64,000 nt of DNA. Origin: Shigella phage Moonfish. The position numbers were made by a program, and so were the translations under genes. Shown one piece after another: positions 52,995 to 55,180 of the stretch. Position 1 is the stretch's first letter. The number at the start of each line of letters is the position of its first letter. Location: the sequence record PQ613263; one strand, given 5' to 3'. The notes beneath the pieces were generated by a model that was not told the DNA's origin, ran no database searches, and worked only from the letters and a program-made list of their open reading frames with translations.

Positions 52995-53222
52995 TTAACT
53001 TAATGCATAATCCGTTTCAAGAATGTCCTGCCAGAGGCTGTCATCCAGCTTACCCGCAGAGAACTCTTGTCCCAGTACCTGAGATAGGATGAAGCCCAGC
53101 AAGTCACTCTTAGCAATGTCAGATAGAATCTGATTGTACTGACGACGTAGGTCATTACCATAGTTAGGATGACAACGAAAACCATTAGTTAAACGAGTCG
53201 TTAGCTCGCCCTTACCTTCCAT
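52995..53222 (-). CDS. RNA polymerase II large subunit, C-terminal segment (downstream exon or fragment)
   Basis: Ends [12 protein letters not shown], resembling the T7 RNAP C-terminus LRDILESDFAFA; overlaps the HNH ORF stop. Confidence 0.5.
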   Translation of the reverse strand: [75 protein letters not shown]

Positions 53223-53856
53223 GATTAACATGAAAGCCATATGTAGCATCTGCTTGTTTACGAGCAAGCATTGCCTCCTCAAGTGTGTCGTACGTACCCA
53301 GACCGATCTGTTTGCGATTGACTGTGATGTGTGCCTGAAATCTACCAGAAGGCAGTATTCTCACACCGTTCACTTTGCTTGAAGTATTACTAGATAAACT
53401 CATATTCATCTGGTTCTGTCTGCTGGTTACATTTCTCAAATTAGACCAACGATTGTCGTTTCTAGTATGATTGATGTGGTCCACCTGGTTAGGTGTTTCC
53501 CCAGTTTCCATTATCCAGATTATTCGATGTAGTAAGTACTCTTTGCGGCCCAGGCTAACGGATAGATACCCTTCTTTGTGAGGATACCCCACAATTGTTC
53601 CGGCTAACCCACTGGCAGAGTCATAACGATGAGTCACTAGCCCACTATCCCTGTCATACCTTAAAACCTTCTGCAAAGATTCTTGGGTAATATTACCCAA
53701 GTTTATTATTAGGTTTTTACAGGTAGAGCATAGATGACCTATTGGACTCTTTCTAGCATCATAGAAGTTACAAACAAACTCATTAGAGCATTGCTTGCAA
53801 CTACAGATAGCTGTGTACTTACCAGTTTTACGTAATATTTGAGAGTTATCTAACAT
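53212..53856 (-). CDS. HNH-AP2 homing endonuclease inserted in the RNA polymerase II large-subunit gene
   Basis: HNH motif HRIIWIMETGETPNQVDHINHTRNDNRWSNL plus AP2-like NGVRILPSGRFQAHITVNRKQIGLGTYDTLEEA; own RBS. Confidence 0.6.
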   Translation of the reverse strand: MLDNSQILRKTGKYTAICSCKQCSNEFVCNFYDARKSPIGHLCSTCKNLIINLGNITQESLQKVLRYDRDSGLVTHRYDSASGLAGTIVGYPHKEGYLSVSLGRKEYLLHRIIWIMETGETPNQVDHINHTRNDNRWSNLRNVTSRQNQMNMSLSSNTSSKVNGVRILPSGRFQAHITVNRKQIGLGTYDTLEEAMLARKQADATYGFHVNHGR

Positions 53857-54148
53857 ATGGATTCCTTAGTAATTTTGCATACAATTTCAGATTGTATCCT
53901 AACCAAGGAAGTAAGTCTCCAATTTTCACTGGAGTATCGGACTATATCATCACCCACTAATCAGTGGGGCAAGGCGCTTGGGTGGTCACTTGACTCACCT
54001 ACTCTACTCACATACGAAATGCTTTCGATAGTCTCTGAACCTTCCCTCATAGAGGGCTTGGCTGCTGATTGGCATATCCATAGGACTTAGCTTTCCAGCA
54101 ATTCACCTTGTTTTCGACACGGATTACTCCGTGAAGGATCATTTATGT

Positions 54149-55180
54149 TTAATCATGTACAGTCAATACAGGGAATGGCTTCTTAGGTAAAGTGTCCAGC
54201 ATGTCTGCTACTACCTGACGGTCAACCATAGCAATAGTGCCTGGGTCGAGATAGTCGATAATAGACATAGATAAGAATCCAGACTTCTCGTAGTGTTCCC
54301 ACAAGGTCTGTACCATTTCCATGTTACCTTCAATCTCCCCATACTCTGCTGGGCCTGTGTCGCAGAGTTCACGAACAGCAGCAACCAGGTTAGCATCGAA
54401 GTTACAACGACGCAGCATCTCGCGTACCACCATCCCATCAATAGAGTGGGTGATGTTAGCAGAGAGCATACGAGTCTTCTCTTCAGTACCCTGAACCATG
54501 CGGGTAATGTCGAATGGTTTACCTAAGAAGTTAACAGTCTGTACTTCTGGAACCATGACCTTAATGACGGCATGGAAGTTGTCAGACAATACCCATACGT
54601 AACGGTTAGCATCCGGGTTACCACATTGCAGTAAGAACTTGTTCAATGCCCAAGGCCCACTAGCAACAGTTTCCATTACATTCTCAAAAGTCTTGAGACG
54701 GATACCCTCACCGAATACTTCTTTAGGCTTAGCTTCTGAACCGTAGAATGCAGTCATAACTGCCTGCTTAGTGTCACTACGCTTAATACGAGATGCTTCA
54801 CCAAGGATGTCCAACATCTTGTGATAGATAACTGTATAAGCATCACGACGTAATGGCTTACCGTTTTCACCCATGTAGTTAACTACGTTACACAGTTCAG
54901 CAGCAGAACGGTCACCAGTCAGGCAAGCCAGTAACTGCAAGCCTGATGATGTAGCATCCAGAGCTACGGCATAGCCAATAGGCTTACCGGCTTTCATATC
55001 TTTCCATGCGTTTACACCTGCATAGAACAATGCGGATTCTTCAGCTTCATCTACCAGATTAAGCAGGTTAGCTTCGTTTTCATCGAACCAGCTAATACGT
55101 TCATCCCATGTTTTCTTATCCAGACCCATGTTATTCGCAATATCAATCTTTAAATATTCTTTCGCTGTGAAAAGCTGCAT
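54149..55180 (-). CDS. T7-like single-subunit RNA polymerase, N4 RNAP II large subunit (gp16-like), N-terminal segment ending at motif C
   Basis: Motif A [10 protein letters not shown] (T7 DGSCSGIQ), motif B [16 protein letters not shown] (T7 RSVTKRSVMTLAYGSK); ORF stops right after VHD (T7 motif C IHDSFG). Confidence 0.7.
   Translation of the reverse strand: [343 protein letters not shown]

Follow-up and report, generated by a model that had tools for sequence, protein, structure and literature searches.

The window analyzed here is a stretch of 64,000 nucleotides (nt) from Shigella phage Moonfish (sequence record PQ613263), a Gamaleyavirus (G7C-like, N4-like) coliphage. The locus that concerns us lies on the minus strand, in DNA whose flanks are approximately 90%–92% identical to those of G7C, PhAPEC7, and their relatives, and it contains the homolog of gp16, the gene for the large subunit of RNA polymerase II (RNAPII). 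In N4, gp15 and gp16 are early products that are essential for middle transcription, and gp16 has motifs A to C (Lenneman and Rothman-Denes 2015, PMC4496689). Read in the direction of transcription, the locus begins with an open reading frame (ORF) of 343 amino acids (54149..55180) that terminates, directly after the residues VHD, as ...LTVHD-TAA. There follow 292 nt (54148..53857) that hold no significant ORF, an intact gene for a 214-amino-acid HNH endonuclease (53212..53856), and finally a frame that ends in ETDYALS with its stop codon at 52995. An initial annotation of this DNA had described the same arrangement (with an interval of about 290 nt) as an RNAPII large-subunit gene interrupted at motif C, probably by a group I intron, and each of the features that it listed is present on the minus strand where it had placed them. 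As set out below, the sequence makes it very probable that a 968-nt group I intron, mobile and self-splicing and with an HNH endonuclease gene of its own, has been inserted into the gp16 homolog.

The predicted intron occupies positions 53183..54150 (minus strand), starting with AAACAUAAAUGAUCC and ending with ...UUUAACUAAUG, the terminal G being at 53183. Its boundaries were set by alignment to the intronless gp16 of G7C together with the rule that the upstream exon ends in U and the intron in G, and in this way the 3' junction, which the initial annotation had left unplaced, could be assigned to 53183/53182. Thus (with a slash marking each splice junction), exon 1 (54151..55180) ends ...GTA CAT GAT T at 54151, the intron ends ...AATG at 53183, and exon 2 (52995..53182) starts GT TTT CGT at 53182; we found no alternative register of the junction that restored the frame. 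Exon 1 consists of 343 codons plus the first base of a cysteine codon (T 54151), and exon 2 contributes the GT of that codon followed by 61 codons and the stop (CFRCHPNYG...ETDYALS). The insertion point is therefore one nucleotide after the codon for the motif C aspartate, inside the Cys codon of VHD-C-F, and the TAA that closes the 343-amino-acid ORF (54151..54149) is in frame in unspliced RNA only. The predicted junction of the ligated messenger RNA (mRNA) reads ...CAUGAUU/GUUUUCG..., and the joined exons measure 1218 nt and encode 405 amino acids, compared with 404 for N4 gp16 and with the roughly 410 that had been estimated for the two pieces together.

Several comparisons support this assignment of the exons. 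The product of exon 1 matches Pfam RNA_pol (PF00940, E = 3e-12), and the spliced protein aligned over residues 1–405 with residues 1–404 of the 404-residue N4 RNAP2 (PDB 6dt7_B; E = 2.6e-186), in an alignment that runs without a gap across the junction. Across that junction, the spliced reading VHDCFRCH is identical to that of the intronless proteins of G7C, St11Ph5, and L092. A profile of five spliced N4-like proteins was colinear with T7 RNA polymerase through motif A, motif B (RSVTKRSVMTLAYGS), the PNFVHSQDG block, and motif C, in agreement with the T7-like motifs that had been recognized from the outset. At motif C the profile reads tvhDaf against 809-LIHDSFG of T7, a stretch that is weak when taken alone and that includes D812, the established catalytic aspartate of T7 motif C. 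Finally, the codons of exon 2 differ from those of ZQ2, G7C, and St11Ph5 at 10–14 synonymous and 0 non-synonymous positions; purifying selection acts on exon 2 as read in the spliced gene.

Immediately behind the VHD codons lies a complete ribozyme core. The covariance-model search that the initial annotation had proposed was carried out and returned a match to Rfam RF00028 on 54160..53917 with a score of 91 bits (gathering score 50; E = 3.4e-23) over model positions 1–253 of 253; it was the sole intron match in the 64-kb window. The corresponding core (P1–P9, 53917..54160, minus strand) includes the last 10 nt of the exon and represents the first 234 nt of the intron. Both the R element, GUUCAGAGACUA at 54040..54029, and the S element, GAUGAUAUAGUCC at 53951..53939, are canonical, and P7 is formed by GACUA and UAGUC. 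Between P7 and P3' are two extra hairpins (54027..54015 and 53999..53981), whose pairs covary. Phage introns of subgroup IA have extra hairpins, P7.1 and P7.2, in this interval, and by these P7.1/P7.2-type hairpins the intron looks IA-like.

The pairing of the predicted ribozyme with its exons can be followed in the internal guide sequence (54137..54144, minus strand), which contributes to both P1 and P10. In P1, the guide GAUC (54140..54137) pairs with the exon sequence GAUU (54154..54151), such that U54151 forms a U·G pair with G54140 at the splice site, in keeping with the earlier observation that the upstream piece ends in U. In P10, AAAU (54144..54141) forms 4 base pairs (bp) with GUUU of exon 2 (53182..53179). 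Comparative data support the fold: RNAalifold predicted 59 pairs from 12 homologous cores, 40 of them with compensatory double changes, and in a set of seven sequences compensatory changes were found in 29 of 47 predicted pairs. The core helices, the R and S elements, the U·G pair of the 5' exon in P1, the terminal G, P10, the restored ORF, and covariation, which together mark a group I intron, are thus all seen at this locus.

The ORF within the intron lies wholly 3' of the catalytic core, after P9, rather than within it. Its product has an N-terminal CxxC...CxxC arrangement, an HNH_3 segment (residues 107–150), and an AP2-like segment (residues 160–198). The protein matches Pfam HNH_3 with an E value of 6e-15 (55 bits; cut-off 24.8) and PHROG 99, "HNH endonuclease," with an E value of 2e-56. 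The best match of its C-terminal region among solved structures is a plant AP2/ERF domain (E = 0.007), and we regard this domain as probably of the AP2 type. Orthologs that are intact and 40%–49% identical are present in four other N4-like phages; the residues DHINH...N...N are invariant among five endonuclease orthologs, and the CxxC...CxxC motif is kept in the orthologs as well.

The intron sequences on either side of the endonuclease gene also appear to be structured. In the spacer between P9 and the ORF, a ViennaRNA fold of 53862..53910 (minus strand; −15 kcal/mol) contains a 9-bp helix of UUCCUUGGU with ACUAAGGAA (53910..53902 with 53870..53862) around a 7-bp hairpin, and this helix would hide the Shine-Dalgarno sequence AAGGAA. 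The 3' end of the intron (53183..53208, minus strand) consists of a hairpin, CGAG-CUAACGA-CUCG (53208..53194), followed by an 11-nt single-stranded tail, UUUAACUAAUG. A 3'-terminal hairpin is kept in the related introns of ZC08, MIF8, and pYD6-A, but its sequence is different.

These features suggest the following course of events. Soon after infection, the injected virion RNA polymerase would produce the gp15/gp16 pre-mRNA, as expected from N4, in which gp15 and gp16 are early genes that this polymerase transcribes. In the folded intron, free guanosine would attack after U 54151, held in place by the U·G pair of P1; the freed exon 1 would then attack after G 53183, with exon 2 lined up by P10, to yield a ligated mRNA that encodes the full 405-residue subunit. 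Production of RNAPII, and hence the switch from early to middle transcription, would accordingly depend on splicing. The endonuclease, for its part, is predicted to cut or nick the intronless gp16 of a co-infecting relative near motif C, and repair from the intron-bearing copy would transfer the intron together with neighboring exon bases. The hidden Shine-Dalgarno sequence may limit translation of the endonuclease from the precursor RNA, and would be analogous to the Shine-Dalgarno sequestration of phage T4 introns.

The intron is patchily distributed. Among about 60 Gamaleyavirus records, the intron of the window was shared only with that of Escherichia phage vB_EcoP-ZQ2 (NC_070874; here ZQ2), which is inserted at the same site and is 94% identical overall and 98%–100% identical in the ribozyme parts; the endonuclease genes are 92% identical in nucleotide sequence and 93.5% identical in amino acid sequence. 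The ZQ2 annotation lists two "RNA polymerase" coding sequences (CDSs) and an "HNH endonuclease" and nothing further. Among the matches listed from a large protein collection, almost all of the closest homologs of the protein were uninterrupted and approximately 405 amino acids long. One such intronless allele is L092, with 96% protein identity, and G7C and St11Ph5 are likewise intronless. Such sporadic presence, with intron-minus alleles as possible targets, is as would be expected for a homing endonuclease.

In all, intron-plus-endonuclease units were found at motif C of gp16 in at least 13 other N4-like viruses, among them ZQ2, ZC08, MIF8, pYD6-A, and nine IMG/VR contigs. Rfam-positive cores of 82–94 bits are present at motif C in Pseudomonas phage ZC08 (Zicotriavirus), Erwinia phage MIF8 (Efbeekayvirus), and Pseudoalteromonas phage pYD6-A (Matsuvirus). 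The nine N4-like contigs, which came from a scan of IMG/VR with the endonuclease alignment, show the same arrangement, and seven of them have Rfam scores of 69–102 bits. In every one of these relatives, excision after a U and after a terminal G reopens the gp16 frame. A second scan of IMG/VR, with a 25-mer of the core, gave four matches, all of them related introns in other genes (capsid genes and one other ORF), and no gp16 intron. By this exact 25-nt P3–P5 segment we noted introns in the major capsid protein genes (Pfam Phage_capsid_2) of L007, L008, and L009 from IMG/VR, and L007 has two group I introns in tandem.

The orthologous units are inserted at three points that lie within 4 nt of one another. 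Site A, one nucleotide after the Asp codon (junction GAY T/GT), is occupied in the window, ZQ2, ZC08, and L017; site C, three nucleotides after it (GAC AGT/TTC), in L019–L021; and site B, four nucleotides after it (GAT KCG T/TY), in MIF8, pYD6-A, L013–L016, and L018. The exon and guide strands of P1 change together from group to group: GAUU with GAUC, GACU with GGUC, CAGU with GCUG, GCGU with GCGC, and UCGU with GCGA. Within Gamaleyavirus, both intron-bearing alleles read GAT T/GT TTT at the junction and three intronless alleles read GAC T/GC TTC. All three T variants are silent, and they are the very bases that pair with the guide in P1 and P10. These three junction-touching bases alone track the presence of the intron, a pattern that could reflect either co-conversion of the flanks in the course of homing or selection for splicing.

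We put at about even the chance that a single lineage of intron and endonuclease colonized motif C of gp16 across many N4-like genera, at three sites, with the guide being re-tuned each time. Were this so, the units would constitute a natural series in which the insertion site of a group I intron has shifted while its endonuclease has been kept. Taken with the separate introns described below, which interrupt motif B and the HSxDG block in other members, it would make gp16 a multi-site homing hotspot, and the endonuclease could act as a weapon against the middle-transcription enzyme of intronless co-infecting relatives, as in PhiPA3.

Some points weigh against the proposal of a mobile, self-splicing intron. 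The proposed splicing, along with its efficiency and guanosine dependence, is deduced from sequence, and the activity of the endonuclease, its cleavage site, and homing are predictions of the same kind. Of the HNH-AP2 endonuclease that the initial annotation had named, the HNH assignment held, but the AP2 segment fell below the Pfam cut-off (22.6 bits against 33.3; E = 1.3e-4). The helix that would hide the Shine-Dalgarno sequence has no support from covariation, the region being 100% identical in ZQ2. Finally, the frame of exon 2 in the window, but not in the relatives, continues upstream without a stop into the last part of the endonuclease gene and has ATG codons, and because of this the sequence leaves some room for a separate C-terminal peptide.

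The last point bears on the alternative that survives best, although we judge it to be very unlikely, namely that gp16 is permanently a gene in pieces, its parts of 343 and about 62 amino acids being translated separately and reassembling with gp15 without any splicing. There is reportedly a parallel in phage Aeh1, whose split ribonucleotide reductase is described as a gene in pieces. Separate "RNA polymerase" CDSs are listed in the annotations of ZQ2, MIF8, ZC08, and pYD6-A, and the ZC08 insertion has been discussed as bearing on how the polymerase subunits evolved (Amgarten et al. 2017, PMC5418858). Against a gene in pieces is the ribozyme, complete, high-scoring, and covarying, that fills precisely the interval between the parts; moreover, the split would separate the catalytic aspartate from the remainder of motif C. 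Translation of a separate C-terminal part is also contradicted: in MIF8, ZC08, and pYD6-A a stop interrupts the frame of exon 2 at 4–10 codons before the junction, with no start after it, and in the window no Shine-Dalgarno sequence precedes the in-frame ATG codons.

Slightly less probable still is a decayed intron that no longer splices, in a gp16 pseudogene, with the genome being defective or using another polymerase. In favor of this, the public gene index has no entry for the exact product of exon 1. The 91-bit core with its canonical elements, the two intact exons, and the exclusively synonymous changes in exon 2 speak against decay, as does an endonuclease ORF that is intact in all five of the phages compared. 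Moreover, gp16 is essential in N4 (PMC4496689), and ZQ2, ZC08, MIF8, and pYD6-A, which have the same arrangement, would seem to be viable isolates, because they have been deposited as named phage genomes with hosts recorded. An intein or a translational bypass of the insert can be dismissed: interruption of a catalytic motif is typical of inteins, but the reading frames refute both mechanisms, there being a stop right after the Asp codon and an insert that is out of frame with the exons and has many stops, no Hint-domain match was found with Pfam, and we know of no precedent for a bypass of 968 nt.

The self-splicing intron that we favor has well-known counterparts. It resembles the subgroup IA introns of T-even and SPO1-type phages, and in particular that of T4 nrdD (sunY) with I-TevII, in its R/S core, its hairpins between P7 and P3', and the location of its ORF outside the core; the sunY ORF is also 3' of the core. 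It differs from the nrdD type in that its host gene is for a T7-like RNA polymerase subunit and in that its endonuclease combines HNH_3 with an AP2-like segment, whereas I-TevI and I-TevII are GIY-YIG enzymes. Sequence similarity to the T4- and SPO1-type introns is confined to the generic core. Similarity in sequence is also seen with introns in the DNA polymerase genes of Felixounavirus, whose cores are 72%–80% identical over 120–190 nt but whose host gene is different. In Escherichia phage tootiki (L005, 2425..2708; Rfam 61 bits) and many Felixounavirus records, the annotation divides the DNA polymerase gene into two parts with such an intron between them. In tootiki, the one record inspected, the nearest endonuclease gene is downstream of the DNA polymerase pieces and its product is 30% identical to that of the window.

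Of the HNH intron endonucleases directed at RNA polymerase genes of phages, the nearest precedent with experimental support is gp210 of PhiPA3. It is encoded in a putative group I intron of a conserved gene of this kind, and in co-infections it nicks the allele of a related phage that lacks the intron (Birkholz et al. 2024, PMC11620839). PhiPA3 is a nucleus-forming jumbo phage, and the interrupted gene there is for a beta-type subunit of its multisubunit polymerase, whereas here it is for the T7-like catalytic subunit of an N4-like podovirus, with a homing endonuclease whose activity is predicted. Among N4-like phages, group I introns have been reported in td (pVa5) and are suspected in other Vibrio phage genes. 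A homing endonuclease in ZC08 has been described as "inserted within the RNAP subunit 2 gene" and as absent from the sibling phage ZC03, with no description of a ribozyme (Amgarten et al. 2017, PMC5418858). That element belongs to the same family as ours: its endonuclease is 47% identical, and its intron, of 962 nt and with an Rfam score of 89 bits, shares the insertion point to the nucleotide (GAC T/GT), but the phage differs from Moonfish, a Gamaleyavirus, in genus and host. It has likewise been noted that gp16 is "split into two genes" in two N4-like phages, and, as for ZC08, neither a ribozyme nor splice junctions were identified (Lenneman and Rothman-Denes 2015, PMC4496689). The open-access papers that we searched contained no account of gp16 bearing a group I intron.

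The intron is, then, a new and well-supported member of a familiar class, to which it adds a wide spread at motif C and the use of three adjacent sites; it reveals no new kind of element. For annotation, it suggests that "two RNA polymerase CDSs + HNH endonuclease" in N4-like phages should be understood as one spliced gene, which would account for the exceptions in which gp16 is recorded as split. It would also place a ribozyme on the critical path of an N4-type transcription cascade, in that no RNAPII would be made, and no middle genes expressed, from mRNA that is not spliced. The pairs of intron-plus and intron-minus phages (the window or ZQ2 versus G7C or L092) and the series of three sites should be of use for studies of homing, exon co-conversion, and guide retargeting.

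Additional insertions were observed in gp16 homologs at positions other than motif C. In L093 (a contig of Logan SRR10692761, 1771..3798) and L094, the gp16 of a Gamaleyavirus is split at motif B, between KQAV and MTAFYGSEA. The insert in L093, of about 800 nt, has an ORF for 186 amino acids, rich in cysteine, between the halves of a group I-like core, with GGTGAACTC... upstream of the ORF and ...GAAGCGCC...GATGATATAGTCC downstream of it. Rfam at its gathering threshold gave no match on L093, probably because the ORF interrupts the core. A second group I intron, without an ORF, is present upstream in the same gp16 homolog of pYD6-A (L011, 1603..1894) and in L015 (1744..2042), with Rfam scores of 72–74 bits. 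That of pYD6-A, of 292 nt, is inserted at SLAA/NVIHSIDG, which corresponds to the PNFVHSQDG block of T7. In L006 (IMG/VR 3300003873_000030), a 508-amino-acid ORF (8821..10347, minus strand) that contains the motif A/B-like strings VDATMSLAQVLAC and KTQVATFYGSSA and has no Pfam match precedes a group I intron (84 bits), behind which comes an ORF (7835..8542, minus strand) that appears GIY-YIG-like by eye; the 508-residue product may represent a single-subunit polymerase that has diverged and whose gene has its intron elsewhere.

As for the surroundings of the intron, a homolog of gp15, the gene for the small subunit of RNAPII, is located upstream of gp16 (55765..56583, minus strand) and was recognized by its match to the annotated gp15 of G7C. 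Between the two genes, and outside the intron, an endonuclease gene like gp15.1 of G7C stands free (55182..55763, minus strand); its product has N-terminal CxxC motifs and matches Pfam NUMOD1 (E = 2e-6) and PHROG 1035, "endonuclease VII" (E = 3e-28). This gene is also present in G7C and L092, and St11Ph5 has an ORF of 53 amino acids in its place; the gene represents a second selfish element at the RNAPII locus. Directly 3' of the gp16 stop codon is a strong hairpin followed by a T-run that resembles an intrinsic terminator (52963..52988, minus strand), and no terminator-like site was found between the gp16 exons on the minus strand. A match to a sigma-70-like promoter that overlaps the 5' splice site (54166..54138) was judged to be due to chance, because shuffled sequence gave more matches of this kind than the region itself.

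The stretch of exon 1 that borders the intron (54152..54410) is hypervariable throughout the genus, with 66%–80% nucleotide identity as compared with 92%–94% in the adjoining exon DNA. The divergence holds with respect to ZQ2, which has the same intron (77% over 259 nt), and to L092, the best protein match. We considered whether this stretch might be a co-conversion tract that arrived with the intron, but rejected the idea on the basis of its variability across the genus and its identity of only 77% with ZQ2; it could be a recombination hotspot beside the homing site.

Finally, we note two features away from the RNAPII locus. The window contains a transfer RNA gene at 26821..26894 (minus strand; Rfam tRNA, 64 bits), and in the related Gamaleyavirus records PhAPEC5, phi G17, SP5M, and Uz-1 the DNA polymerase is annotated as two CDSs.

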